Origin: Dialister sp. i34-0019-2H8
Lineage (GTDB): Bacteria; Bacillota; Negativicutes; Veillonellales; Dialisteraceae
NCBI RefSeq assembly: GCF_042846925.1
Contig: NZ_BAABYQ010000001.1
Location: 1,542,826 to 1,582,825, forward strand
Direction: 5' to 3'
DNA length: 40,000 bases
How positions within the stretch are numbered: position 1 is the first letter of the stretch; every line of letters starts with the position of its first letter. Positions 24,350-30,522 of this stretch are shown here, in pieces. A program made the translations under genes and the position numbers. The notes under the pieces were generated by a model. The model was not told the DNA's origin, ran no database searches, and worked only from the letters and a program-made list of their open reading frames with translations.

Positions 24350-24717
24350 CAGGCCTCCTCCCCTTCCCGTTCTGCGTTAATTTCCTTGTGAGTAGGATAG
24401 TTCAAAGCCTTACCGGCACGAAGCAGAAACTGCTGCTCCGCTACCGTCTGAATGGCCAGAATGTCATTAGGCCGTATATCATACTGGGGGTCACAATCAA
24501 TGCGGAGCTTTTGTGTCAACACATCGCCCCGATCGGACTGTTTCCCGGTCAAGCTGATTTCGTAGATGCCAAAATGACAGGGAATCTCGTGATAGATTTC
24601 ATCAATCCTATAGTCGTCAGCTCCCTCTGCATCCAAAGAAGCGACTTGTCTGGACACAGTCATGCGGTCATTGTACATAAACTGTTTCAGCAACCGCTTC
24701 ATTCTTACGAATTCCAT
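24349..24717 (-). CDS. head closure / head-tail adaptor protein
   Basis: Synteny between the gp6-like connector and the gp10-like protein. Confidence 0.6.
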   Translation of the reverse strand: MEFVRMKRLLKQFMYNDRMTVSRQVASLDAEGADDYRIDEIYHEIPCHFGIYEISLTGKQSDRGDVLTQKLRIDCDPQYDIRPNDILAIQTVAEQQFLLRAGKALNYPTHKEINAEREGEEA

Positions 24718-25112
24718 GGCTGCCTACCTCCCACCTTGCGGAAACGGTTCAGCTTTGGTTTCAAGCTCTCAAAGTCTGCTTCATGGGGATTCCCAGTAGA
24801 AGATACATCAGATACCGCAAAGGTAAATTCCGTATCATTCTGCTTCAAAGATTTCAGCGGTGCTTTTTCTCCTGAAGTCTCCGCATCCATCCACTTAGTA
24901 ATAAGCTCCACCGCCGTATAAATCAGGCTATCAGGGAAATCCTCTCGGTGGCAGTAATCCATCACATCCACTACAAACTTCTCCACGTACATTCGGAGCT
25001 TTGTATCGTTGATGATAGGCGATTCCTCTACCATACCGTTATAATCCCCTTTGACCTCCATGATTTTGTCATAAATGGCCGCATCGGCTTCCTCTTGAGA
25101 AATATATTTCAT
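24705..25112 (-). CDS. gp6-like head-tail connector protein
   Basis: First gene of the connector block. N-terminal ...EEADAAIYDKI... pattern. Confidence 0.65.
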   Translation of the reverse strand: MKYISQEEADAAIYDKIMEVKGDYNGMVEESPIINDTKLRMYVEKFVVDVMDYCHREDFPDSLIYTAVELITKWMDAETSGEKAPLKSLKQNDTEFTFAVSDVSSTGNPHEADFESLKPKLNRFRKVGGRQPWNS

Positions 25113-25137: not shown

Positions 25138-25164
25138 AAAAAAGCACCTGCAACTCGCAAGTGC
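25138..25164 (-). terminator. rho-independent terminator after the moron block
   Basis: Minus strand GCACTTG-CGAGTTG-CAGGTGC followed by T6. A 17-nt piece, AACTCGCAAGTGCTTTT, recurs at 25457-25473. Confidence 0.5.
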
Positions 25165-25170
25165 TTTTGC

Positions 25171-25431
25171 TTACCAATCTATATCTGGCAAAATATCTTT
25201 AAAAGGCCTGCCCATAATCTTAAAGTTTGCCAATGCCTCATCAATAGAAGAATATCGGTAGTCATCATCAGTATCTGCACGTCCACAAGTATATTCGGTA
25301 GGATCATTGTAAACTCCTGTTTTGGAGTCAAACACTTCACCAATGAAATACCAATGTCCTTTATAAGAAAATGTTAAATCCTGTGCAGCATCTAAATACT
25401 CAATAAGCTCTCTGCGTGTCAATGATCTCAC
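25171..25431 (-). CDS. small protein, paralogue 2 of candidate immunity family (G.PF...LPD.DW C-terminus)
   Basis: ...YKGHWYFIGE...SSIDEALANFKIMGRPFKDILPDIDW aligns with the 25796-26065 product. AT-rich. Confidence 0.6.
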   Translation of the reverse strand: MRSLTRRELIEYLDAAQDLTFSYKGHWYFIGEVFDSKTGVYNDPTEYTCGRADTDDDYRYSSIDEALANFKIMGRPFKDILPDIDW

Positions 25432-25480
25432 CTCAGATTCCTACCAACTTCTTTTCTATCAACTCGCAAGTGCTTTTGGT

Positions 25481-25720
25481 TTAAAATATCACTGTATCCC
25501 AAATTTCCTTGTCAAATTGAGGAATTGCTTGCTTCGTTTTTATCGCACGCCAAAGTTTCTTCGCTGCTAATTTATACTCACTTGCAACAGGGTGTACAGG
25601 ATCCAATAACGTAACACGCTCAAGAGAATGCTGTCCGAATACTTTTAAGTATTCCGTCTTTGCACGAGTTAAATCCGCCATTGCTATATCAAGATTCGTC
25701 CCGAATGCGTCTGCAGGCAT
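25481..25720 (-). CDS. hypothetical small protein (79 aa)
   Basis: ORF between the two paralogues. A G-rich RBS lies before the ATG. AT-rich. Confidence 0.5.
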   Translation of the reverse strand: MPADAFGTNLDIAMADLTRAKTEYLKVFGQHSLERVTLLDPVHPVASEYKLAAKKLWRAIKTKQAIPQFDKEIWDTVIF

Positions 25721-25795
25721 ATTAATCCCCCCATTTATGCCATTAATATCAGACCAGCATGTTCGCCAGCACTTTTCAACAAGTGTTTTTTAGGG

Positions 25796-26065
25796 TTACA
25801 TCGCATCCCAATCCAAATCTGGTAAAAGACTTCTGAATGGCTGTCCATCAAGGAATGTAGCATTCATAAAGGCCTCAAAATCAGGAAAATCCCAACATTC
25901 CTCATCTTTCAATGTATCATATACGCAAATATAGTATCTTAAATCACCCGGATCGTGCTCAACAGAATATCTAATTCCTTTATACCAAAATGAATTATTA
26001 TACAGTGTCCAATTTTCCATCCCATCACGTAGTTGCTTTTCGCTTAACTGCAGCTTCAATCTCAT
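25796..26065 (-). CDS. small protein, paralogue 1 of candidate immunity family
   Basis: Overlaps the 3' end of the MuF-toxin gene by 41 nt. Contains ...FWYKGIRYSV...FPDFEAFMNATFLDGQPFRSLLPDLDWD. Confidence 0.6.
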   Translation of the reverse strand: MRLKLQLSEKQLRDGMENWTLYNNSFWYKGIRYSVEHDPGDLRYYICVYDTLKDEECWDFPDFEAFMNATFLDGQPFRSLLPDLDWDAM

Positions 26066-27461
26066 TTTTCATCCACTCTCTTTCCCTATCGCCAAGCTCT
26101 TTCCCTTTATCAGGGCTTCCCGCCCATTTACCGGAAGGTTTCTTCTTCCATTGCCAAATATGCATATGCTCTCCGACTTCGCCAAAGGGATGTTTTTTGG
26201 AATTTCCATGTGGCCCGCAATGAATCTGTACTGCCATAAAACCATTGCTATCATAAAAATCAAAATCGTATTGTAAGTCATTTCTGTTAGATTGGTGCAT
26301 TACTACGCTATTAGGTAATCCTCTACTTGGAGTCTGCTGATGAGCACTTTGTGCATATTTGGTAGCAATAATCGTCCCATCTTTTCGAGTAGGCCATTTA
26401 CCCTCGCCTGTTGGTACAAGCCTTGGTTCTATATAAGTATTATACCACGACTCATAGGTCATATTCTTTGGAACATGAATGGTTTTCTTTTCGTAATTCC
26501 TAGCTGTTCGAGTTCCATCTTCGTTATAGACGTCTCGCAAACTACCAGCGATAGTGCTACGACAATTCGGATGCAACGGTGGTGCATTTTCACCAGGGCG
26601 GTATTCATCAATGGAATAGACGTGACCGTCATGTGACCGGCATATAGCAGAAGTACGCCTGTCTAATGTAGCAATGAAACGGTAGTATTTCATGCCGGAC
26701 TCTTTGATACTGTCAGCGGCTGCACGATTCTGAACATAGTTCATTTCCGTCCGTACTAGCCTTCTCGCATTGGAGAGACCGGCATGCATTTTGTCTTCTA
26801 CCATTTTTGCCATCTGAGGGACGGACAGCCCGCGGTGCAGCCCATTCGACACGACTGTGCGAAGGGCCGTGCCGAGCTGCTGGTCATTCTTCCAGATACG
26901 CTGACTATAGGACTTTCCGCTCCACGGAGCAGCGGCGATTTTTTGTGCCGTATCGTCATCAATAGCGACATTCGCCTTCATGATTCCCGTCCGTTCTGCC
27001 ACGTCATAAATGCCGTGGTAGAAACGATCCTTATAGGCATCCATCAGAAAGTCCGTCATGCGGTCTTCTGTCTTGCGTCCCAGCCGGTCAAGAGCCTTCA
27101 GCGTTTCTGCATAGAGCTTATCCAGACGCGAAATGCGGCTTCGCATAGCGAGGGTGTTCAGTTCCTCCGACAGAACGCTGCCGTTCTCGATCCCCTGCAG
27201 GTATTCTTCCATGCTCATCCGCCAGACGCGATATTCATCGCCCGTCAACAGTCTGTGCGCTTCTGCCATAGATAGTTTGTTATCTTTCGCGAAGCACCCA
27301 TACAGAGCAGCGATGTCCCTTTGGATGTCAGCCAGAGCCTGCTCATAATACGCCGCCAGATCGCGCTCTACGGTAGTCTGGCAACGATTGTGCCAGGCTT
27401 CTTCATAGGCTGCGGCCCTGGCGGCCCAGTATGCTTCATTCTCTGACTGCTTATCCATCAT
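26025..27461 (-). CDS. full-length MuF/SPP1 gp7-like head morphogenesis protein with C-terminal His-rich toxin-like extension
   Basis: MuF core ...ARRLVRTEMNYVQN...RTSAICRSHDG...PPLHPNCRSTI. About 170 further residues end ...DFDFYDSNGFMAVQIHCGPHGNSKKHPFGEVGEHMHIWQW.... The extension DNA is visibly AT-richer than the MuF part. Confidence 0.85.
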   Translation of the reverse strand: MMDKQSENEAYWAARAAAYEEAWHNRCQTTVERDLAAYYEQALADIQRDIAALYGCFAKDNKLSMAEAHRLLTGDEYRVWRMSMEEYLQGIENGSVLSEELNTLAMRSRISRLDKLYAETLKALDRLGRKTEDRMTDFLMDAYKDRFYHGIYDVAERTGIMKANVAIDDDTAQKIAAAPWSGKSYSQRIWKNDQQLGTALRTVVSNGLHRGLSVPQMAKMVEDKMHAGLSNARRLVRTEMNYVQNRAAADSIKESGMKYYRFIATLDRRTSAICRSHDGHVYSIDEYRPGENAPPLHPNCRSTIAGSLRDVYNEDGTRTARNYEKKTIHVPKNMTYESWYNTYIEPRLVPTGEGKWPTRKDGTIIATKYAQSAHQQTPSRGLPNSVVMHQSNRNDLQYDFDFYDSNGFMAVQIHCGPHGNSKKHPFGEVGEHMHIWQWKKKPSGKWAGSPDKGKELGDREREWMKNEIEAAVKRKATT

Positions 27462-28429
27462 TAGCCAACCTTATGCTTCAGGGCTACCATGCGGATAGCT
27501 TTGGATTCATATACACGATTCCAATTGGTGGCATCCGCCAGTTCTGCGCGAGTTGGGGATTCCGGATTGGTCCTCCTCTTGTTGGTCCATGCTACTCCCC
27601 GTGGATGCATGATAAAGCAACGGCGGTTATAGAGCATGTCTACGCCAGCGCCGTCATCCGGGTCACGTTTGGTTTCGGTCTGCACGAAACGAACCGGAGA
27701 ACCTTCGCCGTAAGCAATAGCACCGGTACCAAAGAAATAGGTGGTGTATACGCCAGCAGATACTGGGCATCCATCATCTACAATGACACGGCGGCCCTGG
27801 TATGTATCAAATTCCACATTGGTAGAATCTCTTTCGGTAGCAATGAGGTTCTTTTTCTTCAGGTATGCTTTGGTAGCAGAATGCATCACCACAGCGGAAA
27901 GCTGATCCTGTGCATCGCCCATGAGCTGGAGGGTATCGATGACTGCAGAGGCAGAAATGTTGGCAGCTTCCCCTTCCAGTGCAGAAATATCCAGAATATG
28001 GTCTTTCATGGAAGTAGAAGCGAATACGCCAGCAAGGATATTGATGAGTTCCTTCTGGTACTGTCTAGCCCAATAGCCTGCTACCAGATCGCCAATAGCG
28101 GCCATCGGGTCCTTACCAGCCAGTGCGGCAGACAGATTGGAAGCACTCCATTTCTGTCTGCGCATGATGGTAGTGGATACATCTTTCTTGGATGTGATTT
28201 TCTGTGCTTCGATAGTCTGCCCTTCTACGATGTTGTCAGCGTCTCCCTGCAGATCTTCGAAGAATGGCATGTTGTGAGTACGTGCTGCTTCGCTCGCCAG
28301 GGCATCGAATGCCGGGCTTCTAGTAATAATACCGGAATTGAAAAATGCAGATTTCTCCATGGTTTTCTGCACTACGTATGGATTAAACAGTTCCGGGACG
28401 ATGATATCGGAAATAGTAGTTCCTGCCAT
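27461..28429 (-). CDS. major capsid protein (XkdG-like)
   Basis: 322 aa after the scaffold gene. The sequence pattern resembles PBSX-type capsid proteins. Confidence 0.85.
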   Translation of the reverse strand: MAGTTISDIIVPELFNPYVVQKTMEKSAFFNSGIITRSPAFDALASEAARTHNMPFFEDLQGDADNIVEGQTIEAQKITSKKDVSTTIMRRQKWSASNLSAALAGKDPMAAIGDLVAGYWARQYQKELINILAGVFASTSMKDHILDISALEGEAANISASAVIDTLQLMGDAQDQLSAVVMHSATKAYLKKKNLIATERDSTNVEFDTYQGRRVIVDDGCPVSAGVYTTYFFGTGAIAYGEGSPVRFVQTETKRDPDDGAGVDMLYNRRCFIMHPRGVAWTNKRRTNPESPTRAELADATNWNRVYESKAIRMVALKHKVG

Positions 28430-28449: not shown

Positions 28450-29073
28450 TTAAATGGTTACTCCGGCGGCCTGTGCAAAGGCTTTGGCCTGTTCCGGATT
28501 TTCTCTGAGCAATCTTCCCTGTTCAGTGAGGTTAAACGTATCTTTTGCGAATGGATTGGTGCTGGGGTTTCCGTTTCCGCCTTTGGGATCATACTTCGGG
28601 TTAGGGCCGGCCTGCTTAAACAAAAATGCTTTGTTCTTCTGCAGTTCCTTCAGCTGTTCGTCCAATCCGGTGATTTTTCCATCGTCACCAAGGATGAGTT
28701 TGGTCTTGTCGAACAAGCTGGAAACAATGTCCACATCCTGCGCTTTGTCCACAATAGCCAGTTTGATAGCGTCATTGATACGGAGTTCTTTCATTTTCGC
28801 ATCAGCTTCCTCTTGGGCCTTCTTGTTGGCATCCTGCAGGGATTTAATCTGGTTCTTCAATGCGTCCAGATCACCTGTAGACTTTTTGAGGGTTTCCAAT
28901 TGTTTGTCACGGTCCGCTACAGTAGCGATTAAGGTCTTCTTTTCCTCGTTGACCTCATTGAAACGAGATTTTGGTACATACGCACCATCTAAGAAAGCAG
29001 TCAGCGCTTTTTTCGCTGCTTCCTTTTTATCGGCTGCGATGCCCAATTCAGCAAATAATTCTTCCTGATTCAT
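28450..29073 (-). CDS. scaffolding protein (GP20-like)
   Basis: Coiled-coil K/E-rich 207 aa between the portal and capsid genes. Contains ...YVPKSRFNEVNEEKK.... Confidence 0.8.
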   Translation of the reverse strand: MNQEELFAELGIAADKKEAAKKALTAFLDGAYVPKSRFNEVNEEKKTLIATVADRDKQLETLKKSTGDLDALKNQIKSLQDANKKAQEEADAKMKELRINDAIKLAIVDKAQDVDIVSSLFDKTKLILGDDGKITGLDEQLKELQKNKAFLFKQAGPNPKYDPKGGNGNPSTNPFAKDTFNLTEQGRLLRENPEQAKAFAQAAGVTI

Positions 29074-29127: not shown

Positions 29128-30522
29128 CTAGTCATCTTTCTTGCCATCTAAATCCCCTCCATAGGGATCAGCCTGCGCATCCTGCTCTTTGCGTTCCTTT
29201 TCGATCTGTTTTGCTTCTGCTTCTGGATCATCCACGAATGGATGGCGGGATAAGATCGTCTTATTGGACACAATGCCCACGGAATTGCTGCACATGGTCA
29301 CAAGGTCAGAGTCATTTTTAATGGACGTTCTCGTCCATGTCTGTACGATGCCTGCTGTGTCCCTCCCATAATGCTGCAGTATCGCATGAAGCAATTCGTC
29401 GAATCCCATACGGAATTGGACTTCCATCTGCCCCGCCTTGAGCTCCAGCAGGGAATAAACGAATTTCATGGCTTCGCCGGAAGTCTTATCCAGTCCCTGC
29501 TGCTCCGGATCTACCCCCTGTCCCATGGTAAAGATCGCCTTTCGGGTGATTTCCAGCATTTTATCCCTGGCTTCTACCGGAATATCAATATTTAGAGTGG
29601 ACACCCCAGACGAATCCCCTGTGCCTGCAGATTCCACGGAAATGGTTTTGTAGTATTTCAGGTTCTTCAGGAATTCGTTTAGGTCTTCCCCGCCGTAATT
29701 GGTCAAAATAAAAATGACCTCTTGAATATCCTCTAGGTCATTCATGAAACCGCTTAACGTTTTGTCATAAGCGTCTATCAGCTTTTTGATTTTATTGAGA
29801 TCACTGGTAGCTCGTTGATTGTTGCGGAATGGGATAAACGGCACCCGGCCGAAGTTATGGATAAACTGGTTATCCGCTTCAGACAATCCCGCATTGTAAA
29901 AATCAGCAAAGCAGCTATAAGGGGATAGCCTATCCATCGTTTCATCCGATTCCGGGATTCGATAAGCCTCACATTCCCGGTCATTCCAATACTCATAAAC
30001 CTTGTAGGCATCACCGTTATCATCGTACTCACGATACACGCGGAGCACTGCCAGCAGATCATGGGACAATTTGGGCGACCAAATCGGGATAATCTCCTCA
30101 CTGGGTACTACGGCATACTGGAACTTCTTATTCTCATCAATCCAGTAGTGCAGCCATCCGACCCCTGCATTGGATGCATTGGTGGCCAGCTCTTGGATTT
30201 TGCTTGCATAACCGCCTCCCAGTGTATCAGTAATCACCTTATTGACGTCATCGCTATGTGTATCAAACAAAGGCGGGGCAGTAAAAAGATAAGACACCTT
30301 CTGATCCACCAGCAGGCTGTAAAAGCTCATGGGGATTCGATTGTCTGCCGTGCGCATGGGGTTCTCGATATCACCCTTTGCCTCTTTCTCCTGCCTGCTG
30401 GGGGCGAATAGGATATCATTCAGGTTGTTGTAATACCGGTCAGCCGTCAGGGCCTGCTTTAAAAATTCGCCGTGACCGGTGACATATTTCTGTATCATTT
30501 TTCTAGCTACGGTTAAATCCAC
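29128..30522 (-). CDS. portal protein (SPP1 gp6-like)
   Basis: 464 aa directly after terL, with portal-family pattern. Confidence 0.9.
   Translation of the reverse strand: MDLTVARKMIQKYVTGHGEFLKQALTADRYYNNLNDILFAPSRQEKEAKGDIENPMRTADNRIPMSFYSLLVDQKVSYLFTAPPLFDTHSDDVNKVITDTLGGGYASKIQELATNASNAGVGWLHYWIDENKKFQYAVVPSEEIIPIWSPKLSHDLLAVLRVYREYDDNGDAYKVYEYWNDRECEAYRIPESDETMDRLSPYSCFADFYNAGLSEADNQFIHNFGRVPFIPFRNNQRATSDLNKIKKLIDAYDKTLSGFMNDLEDIQEVIFILTNYGGEDLNEFLKNLKYYKTISVESAGTGDSSGVSTLNIDIPVEARDKMLEITRKAIFTMGQGVDPEQQGLDKTSGEAMKFVYSLLELKAGQMEVQFRMGFDELLHAILQHYGRDTAGIVQTWTRTSIKNDSDLVTMCSNSVGIVSNKTILSRHPFVDDPEAEAKQIEKERKEQDAQADPYGGDLDGKKDD

Follow-up and report, generated by a model that had tools for sequence, protein, structure and literature searches.

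What does a long C-terminal extension do on a phage head protein, and what are the small genes that follow it? The question is raised by a prophage locus within a 40,000-nucleotide (nt) stretch of the genome of Dialister sp. i34-0019-2H8 (contig NZ_BAABYQ010000001.1; hereafter, the window). Here, a gene on the minus strand (positions 26025-27461) encodes a 478-amino-acid (aa) minor head protein of the MuF family (PF04233, TIGR01641; phrog_115 and phrog_2841), identical to WP_390153079.1 of the same strain, whose database name is 'minor capsid protein'. On the same strand, the gene is followed by three small open reading frames (ORFs) of 89 aa (25796-26065), 79 aa (25481-25720) and 86 aa (25171-25431). 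A preliminary description, made from the sequence alone, had proposed a MuF polymorphic toxin with duplicated immunity genes. The results presented below indicate that, within its head module, this Dialister prophage probably carries a polymorphic toxin locus of the MuF type: the ends of the protein are swapped, the linkage of the partner gene is strict and toxin domains are found in relatives, although the proposed duplication is not a local one. The C-terminal domain and its partner constitute a new predicted toxin/immunity family within the known MuF polymorphic toxins.

The C-terminal end of the MuF protein is swapped among sister prophages

The MuF domain is complete (PF04233 at aa 200-304, E 2.8e-20; TIGR01641 at aa 203-306, E 3.9e-28) and is followed by 172 further residues, in agreement with the approximately 170 extra residues initially described. 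The protein is composed of (i) an N-terminal region (aa 1-306; 26544-27461, minus strand), which ends with PPLHPNCRSTIAG and shows 94-99% identity among sister prophages, (ii) a linker (aa 307-343; 26432-26543, minus strand) of the pattern R.AR..GK..VP..MTY..WY..Y, which is present in all alleles and has breakpoints at its end (26431 and 26453), and (iii) a variable C-terminal end (26028-26431, minus strand), designated allele A1, which is basic and His-rich, with a core at aa ~356-468.

A scan of metagenomes with the N-terminal part of MuF identified 38 loci, and those whose capsid protein and head-tail adaptor were, respectively, 97-100% and 96-100% identical to those of the window were used to define haplotypes. 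Four forms exist of the variable stretch that runs from MuF residue ~340 as far as the adaptor gene. In haplotype B (16 loci), the MuF protein (617-619 aa) has an unrelated HEIGH (zincin-type) end and is accompanied by the 79-aa ORF only. Haplotypes A1 (5 loci) and A1+ (3 loci and the window) share the His-rich end of the window and carry, respectively, the 89- and 79-aa ORFs or all three small ORFs. Haplotype A2, represented by the single locus L105, encodes a MuF protein of 466 aa, whose His-rich end is 26% identical to that of A1, and the 86-aa ORF alone, which is 100% identical to that of the window.

Sharp blastn breakpoints (26431/26453, 25756, 25460/25459 and 25168) delimit the exchanged modules. 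The A1 end together with the 89-aa ORF forms module M1 (25757-26431), which is absent from B- and A2-type prophages; the 79-aa ORF lies in module M2 (25460-25756), found in B- and A1-type loci but not in A2; and the 86-aa ORF lies in module M3 (25169-25459), a 291-bp present/absent indel among the A1-type prophages. Even among prophages that are 95-99% identical, the C-terminal end is swapped and the N-terminal part of MuF is kept. The N-terminal part and the linker are a constant carrier, and the end from residue ~340 together with the small genes is an exchangeable AT-rich cassette. A conserved carrier with swapped ends is the pattern that defines predicted polymorphic toxins. The AT-richness of the extension and of the DNA behind it, remarked upon in the preliminary description, is evident from a guanine-plus-cytosine (GC) content of 0.397 in the variable block (25169-26431) versus 0.527 in the N-terminal part of the MuF gene (0.484 in the whole window), and the GC content at third codon positions of the small ORFs is 0.28-0.34.

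In more distant MuF relatives (38-73% identity), the same linker is followed by Gln_amidase, CdiA_C or ADPrib_exo_Tox domains, all above the Pfam cut-offs; others have an ATLF-like zincin end, or no end (347 aa). Since sister prophages replace the C-terminal end and the 347-aa relative lacks it, the virion can dispense with this part of the protein. These data bear directly on the explanation that the extension is a non-toxic accessory or structural end, binding, for example, DNA or the portal by means of a metal-binding His cluster, and that the small ORFs are ordinary head genes. Such a role would agree with the name 'minor capsid protein', with the absence of a recognised toxin domain and with four conserved His residues that could hold a structural metal ion, but not with prophages 95-99% identical to each other that swap the end for a zincin-type or a 26%-identical one, with a relative that ends right after the linker, or with the occurrence of the domain and its partner as a pair outside phages. 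The replacement of alleles in isogenic phages contradicts this explanation, which we regard as scarcely credible.

Two side observations concern the MuF genes of other loci. The 347-aa protein, encoded by L124 (4007-5050) and 38% identical, stops after the shared linker and represents a natural short allele. In the sister contigs L113 (947-2340) and L114 (2179-4027), two ORFs take the place of an intact MuF gene, owing either to a frameshift that made it a pseudogene or to a fault in the assembly.

A strictly linked partner gene lies downstream of the domain

With a small-ORF profile built solely from loci other than the window, a family member was found directly downstream of the domain gene in all 87 untruncated loci (40 clusters at 80% identity), mostly with a start/stop overlap of 4 nt, and in others besides. 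It was present in none of the 16 B-type loci, where the domain is lacking. This is the opposite of what had been named as a possible refutation, namely that the small ORFs would be missing from phages that keep the extension. The partner family comprises at least 345 clusters of proteins of ~74 aa and lacks any Pfam domain. In the window, the profile matched the 86-aa ORF (E 3.3e-11) and the 89-aa ORF (E 1.3e-6), both over their full length, and not one of the other 331 ORFs, even at E 10.

The 89- and 86-aa ORFs are also related to each other by BLASTP (E 3e-6 across the C-terminal 23 aa). Phrog_3711 is matched by the 86-aa ORF at E 3.2e-10 and, weakly, by the 89-aa ORF (E 0.14), and both phrog_3711 and phrog_15041 are matched by partners from Streptococcus phages, from phages with DUF7211 and from an integrative element. 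The 79-aa ORF was considered as a third paralogue and rejected, being unrelated to the other two by profile. For the Streptococcus phages IPP40 and MissE1, GenBank gives the partner ORF the name 'RimM protein' (L001:5477-5704; L002:5477-5704), which appears to be a misannotated member of phrog_15041.

The 89-aa ORF and the end of the MuF gene, stop codon included, share 41 nt, and the overlap of the first small ORF with the end of the putative toxin gene had been seen correctly from the outset. The NCBI Prokaryotic Genome Annotation Pipeline gives a shorter product of 74 aa, beginning at Met16 (WP_390153076.1); because the family aligns to the 89-aa form from its residue 10 onward, the longer start, and with it the 41-nt overlap, is favoured. 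In an AlphaFold2 model (predicted local distance difference test, pLDDT, 83), the 89-aa protein consists of one helix, a sheet of four strands and two further helices. The nearest structure in a fold search, the small Bacillus subtilis protein YkuJ (2ffg; probability 0.98, E 0.06-0.08, template modelling (TM) score ~0.5), is not a significant match and is uninformative about immunity. Searches of the small ORFs against Pfam gave no match at E<=5, and hence none to Imm50/Imm53, to helix-turn-helix (HTH) or ribbon-helix-helix (RHH) domains or to antitoxins. The calculated isoelectric points (pI) are 4.4 for the 89-aa, 4.45 for the 86-aa and 8.0 for the 79-aa protein.

The 89-aa ORF always accompanies allele A1 and looks like a candidate cognate immunity partner of this allele. 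The 86-aa ORF looks like the partner of allele A2 and, because the only partner that A2 has in L105 shows 100% identity to it, like an orphan immunity-type gene in the window. The paralogy of two small ORFs, which the preliminary description had noticed, is therefore upheld by BLASTP and by the family profile, but it does not stem from a local duplication. For the 79-aa ORF, the probable counterpart is the zincin-type allele B, which would make this ORF an orphan in the window as well.

Partners and ends also diverge together. The loci L090 and L106, with capsid proteins 99% and adaptors 98.5% identical, have B ends of 80% and 79-aa ORFs of 77% identity. Among 46 distinct pairs, domain identity is more closely correlated with partner identity (r 0.78) than with carrier identity (r 0.65). 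The co-divergence of the B end with the 79-aa ORF, and of the domain with its partner, supports functional coupling. In min_cap2 phages from IMG/VR (L038/L047 versus L049), carriers that are 99% identical bear domains of 51-54% identity, with partners of 22% identity, and therefore cassette exchange within the same predicted toxin family also takes place outside Dialister.

The His-rich domain represents a large family with many carriers

The domain in the window has ~125 aa and is basic (core pI 9.4). The last 123 residues of MuF contain seven His, and H418, H424, H432 and H434 occupy invariant or near-invariant columns of the family. The conserved residues (MuF numbering) are Y403, G407, H418, H424, G427, G430, E431, H432, H434, E460 and R461, and the characteristic His/Glu/Arg constellation includes H-x5-H-x6-EHxH. 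The AlphaFold2 model (core pLDDT 75-90) consists of five strands and a long C-terminal helix.

Neither sequence nor profile searches with the extension and the domain gave any match in Pfam, NCBIfam or the PDB, and the PADLOC models gave zero matches to the domain, the three small ORFs and four relatives. A word-indexed search with the 172-aa extension returned nothing, and an exhaustive search was required: HMMER with the domain yielded 203 representative clusters (50% identity) at E<=1e-3, in nearly all of which the match stops 0-16 residues, mostly four, before the end of the protein. By tblastn, the domain was detected at 33% identity in MuF proteins of S. pneumoniae and S. mitis phages, a scan of genome contigs gave a single relative, and a pattern scan showed that 303 IMG/VR contigs encode it. 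The IMG/VR locus search was performed with the core alignment, as the initial, broader alignment was too diverse. The predicted domain is a large family described in no database. The preliminary description had likewise not recognised the C-terminal domain. A resemblance to a known structural domain, which would have spoken against a toxin, was not encountered in Pfam, NCBIfam or PDB searches, nor at significant level with Foldseek.

Several candidate identities were examined and set aside. SH2 and Cbl matches of the domain model in Foldseek were noise, and a Foldseek search of BFVD returned homologues only, none with a function. Membership of Ntox24 was rejected, because only relatives match it, below threshold, and the window protein shows no match at E<=0.1. 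The PBECR and LPD domains of polyvalent proteins have no Pfam match in the domain. Readings of the His cluster as cupin, HIT, HNH or HExxH motifs were dropped, as the spacing and the predicted topology are at odds with them. Neither Dialister nor these Streptococcus phages are listed in the supplement to Jamet et al. (2017; PMC5576092).

The domain is carried by Phage_Mu_F, Phage_min_cap2 and VG15 proteins, by the C-terminal end of portal proteins, by DUF7211, by DUF5662 plus DUF7211, by an ATLF-like zincin and by a 1924-aa multi-zincin protein, and it also occurs stand-alone. Phage_min_cap2 is the carrier in 28 of the 38 distinct lineages, and MuF or min_cap2 in late head operons account for 31 of them. 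In the Streptococcus phages the order is portal, MuF, small ORF; in other phages, partner-linked domain proteins headed by DUF7211 lie between the terminase and portal genes, and a DUF5662-DUF7211 domain fusion with a partner is encoded in a phage early region. These settings, and those of the stand-alone pairs described below, are mutually independent.

DUF7211, a 25-aa motif, heads 41 of the 103 relatives of the domain. The motif, HHG[IV]KGQKWGVRxGPPYP, also heads two to three different small proteins per phage near terminase/portal genes (L003:1816-2319, 3161-3706 and 6001-6486; L004:3160-4228; L005:36-1105). It looks like an N-terminal tag, unrecognised so far, that would carry or target exchangeable effectors placed behind it; a literature search found DUF7211 and DUF5662 in no paper. 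The 1924-aa protein (P0072) contains two HExxH zincin motifs, a weak eCIS_core match and the His-rich domain at its end, and resembles a polyvalent protein of a phage or conjugative element.

The range of carriers raises the alternative that the domain is an injected take-over or anti-defence effector, following the logic of polyvalent proteins, and that the small protein is a chaperone, a packaging adaptor or a temporary inhibitor. In the framework of Iyer et al. (2017; PMC5512222), effector domains such as PBECR are fused to MuF or portal proteins and are predicted to be injected, and solo versions occur on mobile elements; the same is seen here, where the domain is almost always placed on virion-internal carriers (MuF, min_cap2, VG15, portal), and the 1924-aa relative with its two zincin motifs looks polyvalent. 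The domain nevertheless differs from those described in that it matches no PBECR or LPD model of Pfam, its predicted order is strands then helix rather than helix then strands, and a strictly linked inhibitor-type partner is a feature of this locus and not of polyvalent proteins. Pairs of stand-alone domain and small ORF without a virion gene (on a Tn916-like element and beside HicAB), orphan partner genes that remain without their toxin allele, and classic killing domains at the same position in relatives all make such an effector unlikely, although it and a polymorphic toxin are not mutually exclusive.

The stand-alone pairs deserve separate attention. In Mediterraneibacter (L006-L008:5001-5737), a 166-aa domain protein and a 79-aa partner are encoded beside a cI/Cro-like HTH pair, and in L008 the pair adjoins a Tn916-type integrase, Xis and Rep_trans, and is cargo of an integrative element; the pair of L006-L008 is indexed in 193 blocks of the collection. 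In L128 and L129 (2245-3208 and 4001-4932), a protein composed of a zincin and the His-rich domain, with a partner, is encoded at a prophage end adjoining HicA/HicB, in a region that resembles moron-like accessory DNA.

An overlapping two-gene cassette that also stands alone, by HTH regulators on an integrative element and by HicAB, could be a toxin-antitoxin-like addiction or abortive-infection pair that became fused to MuF and that stabilises the element or aborts other phages without any delivery by the capsid. Ntox24, to which some relatives show a weak match, is likewise reported in toxin-antitoxin-like systems (Zhang et al. 2012; PMC3482391). Unlike in type II toxin-antitoxin systems, however, where an autoregulating antitoxin with a DNA-binding domain is usually encoded before the toxin, the partner is placed downstream, lacks a DNA-binding domain (no HTH or RHH match), has no Pfam antitoxin match and has the predicted helix-and-sheet fold given above; and PADLOC gave no match. 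Stand-alone two-gene cassettes are formed by the relatives in L006-L008 and L128-L129, and the copy in the window is fused to MuF. The location of 31 of the 38 distinct lineages on MuF or min_cap2 in late head operons would be odd for an addiction module. We consider this explanation very unlikely, and it is in part compatible with a polymorphic toxin.

Comparison with known toxin systems

MuF polymorphic toxins of temperate phages, with immunity ORFs downstream, have been described previously (Zhang et al. 2012, PMC3482391; Jamet et al. 2017, PMC5576092), and two tested representatives, Apk2 and Bxa, each have two immunity-type genes (PMC11699363). The locus in the window has the MuF/gp7 domain, the position in a prophage head module, the varying end, the linked downstream small ORF (<150 aa) and more than one immunity-type gene in common with them. 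It differs in that neither its end nor the partner resembles any toxin or immunity family described so far, and in that the gene before MuF is that of the capsid and not that of the portal. Furthermore, unlike the second genes of Apk2 and Bxa, its extra small genes do not add another means of countering one toxin; they appear to be partners of other alleles.

The contact-dependent inhibition (CDI; CdiA-CT/CdiI) and Rhs systems offer a second parallel: a constant carrier, a sharp breakpoint after a linker, a low-GC swappable C-terminal end with its immunity gene, and orphan immunity genes downstream. In contrast to them, delivery in the present case would be by the phage capsid and not by a secretion system, and the locus has orphan immunity-type genes only, with no orphan toxin fragments.

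Among individual toxin families, Ntox24 (PF15529), a predicted all-beta metal-independent RNase that is reported with MuF and in toxin-antitoxin-like pairs (PMC3482391), resembles the His-rich domain in its mostly beta structure, conserved Y and H, association with MuF and stand-alone pairs, but the partners here are not Imm50/Imm53, and the long C-terminal helix and the EHxH cluster are absent from its description. The complex PT7(Bc)-PIM7 (PDB 8owu), a polymorphic DNase with its immunity protein (bioRxiv 10.1101/2021.10.19.465003), is also a short C-terminal polymorphic toxin, and PT7, which has a novel topology, relies on His/Asp catalysis, contains a metal ion and pairs with an acidic immunity protein. 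The match of the domain model to 8owu_B (E 0.2, TM 0.41 over 62 columns) is not significant, and PT7 is linked to LXG and the type VII secretion system.

Observations that weigh against a toxin, and a possible mode of action

A number of findings lower the probability that the locus encodes an active polymorphic toxin with immunity. The trait of MuF polymorphic toxins that it lacks is an end matching a recognised toxin domain: Pfam, NCBIfam, PDB and Foldseek searches revealed no established toxin fold or motif; the DNase complex 8owu_B, although not significant, is the best Foldseek match in the PDB; and Ntox24 is matched by only 2 of the 103 relatives, weakly (E 0.003, 18 bits versus a cut-off of 24). 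The allele in the window has F400 where 102 of the 103 relatives carry Arg, and it is without the terminal motif of the family, RELTxxERKENxDIL. Because F400 replaces Arg and KENxDIL is missing, this allele may be altered or inactive. Linkage and co-divergence are, moreover, partly expected of neighbouring genes that do not interact. The link of the 79-aa ORF with allele B is based on a single phage lineage, and this ORF could alternatively be an ordinary phage gene that was lost in L105. Finally, a scan for promoters before the small genes found two promoter-like sites versus 6.2 expected by chance, and for this reason expression of these genes in the lysogen, which orphan immunity would need, is unsupported.

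The mode of action suggested here is modelled on what is known of SPP1 gp7 and of MuF toxins (PMC5576092, PMC3482391, PMC11699363). The late operon would yield the MuF-toxin and the acidic 89-aa protein by coupled translation, and the latter would bind and silence the toxin end in the producing cell. The MuF part would bring the protein into the procapsid at the portal; at the next infection, the protein would exit with the DNA and its domain would act in the cytoplasm of the new cell. The two orphan genes might guard against the capsid-borne toxins of sister phages, if expressed at the right time. As the domain is basic (core pI 9.4), its partners are acidic (pI 4.4) and the His/Glu/Arg constellation is conserved, an attack on nucleic acid may be offered as a weak guess at the activity.

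A bolder proposal, which we put forward as speculation, is that the His-rich domain has an enzymatic toxin fold of a new kind, borne inside the capsid, that sister prophages in gut Dialister populations compete through different capsid-borne alleles, that lysogens gather orphan immunity genes in the head module in order to survive or exclude sister phages, and that the pair moves among MuF, min_cap2, portal and DUF7211 carriers and integrative elements.

Organization of the locus and possible insertion of module M3

The genes for the portal (29128-30522; PF05133), scaffold (28450-29073; PF06810), major capsid protein (27461-28429; PF20036), MuF protein and head-tail adaptor (24705-25112; phrog_132) form a single minus-strand head block of the Dialister prophage. 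By megablast, the region has no counterpart among phage records. In phages, the MuF gene usually follows the portal gene. The capsid-then-MuF order noted in the preliminary description is unusual and real, but lineage-specific: it is shared by the Dialister phage group and by L119 and L121, and not by the 52%-identical Veillonellaceae relative L089 or the Streptococcus phages, in which MuF follows the portal gene.

The block of small genes is closed, before the connector genes, by a terminator of its own, just as originally suggested. This hairpin (25168-25138, minus strand), with a 12-bp stem, a 5-nt loop and U6 (-20 kcal/mol, z -3.49), was detected by folding and was not reported by a simple terminator scanner. 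A 19-nt direct repeat, CAAAAGCACTTGCGAGTTG, whose sequence is that of the 5' half of the terminator hairpin, occurs just after the 79-aa stop (25460-25478, minus strand) and again just after the 86-aa stop (25151-25169, minus strand), inside the complete terminator. Since the repeat flanks module M3 and loci without M3 carry one copy (the blastn pieces overlap by 18 nt), the arrangement suggests that M3 entered by recombination at the terminator.

Significance for phage biology

Only the Apk2 and Bxa types of MuF toxin have been tested. The predicted toxin/immunity pair is widespread, occurring in S. pneumoniae and S. mitis phages, in many phages of gut Firmicutes and on integrative elements; two new family models would be justified, and the database names 'minor capsid protein', 'RimM protein' and 'hypothetical' can be corrected. 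The near-identical Dialister prophages, which differ just in the toxin end and in the partner genes that they retain, amount to a natural experiment, and cross-immunity between sister phages is therefore directly testable. Its outcome would tell apart phage-phage competition, the lysogeny decision and bacterial killing as the role of the toxin. If the bolder proposal made above is true, DUF7211 would be an unrecognised capsid-targeting tag, and the arms race of toxin and immunity would be one between phages and not between bacteria.

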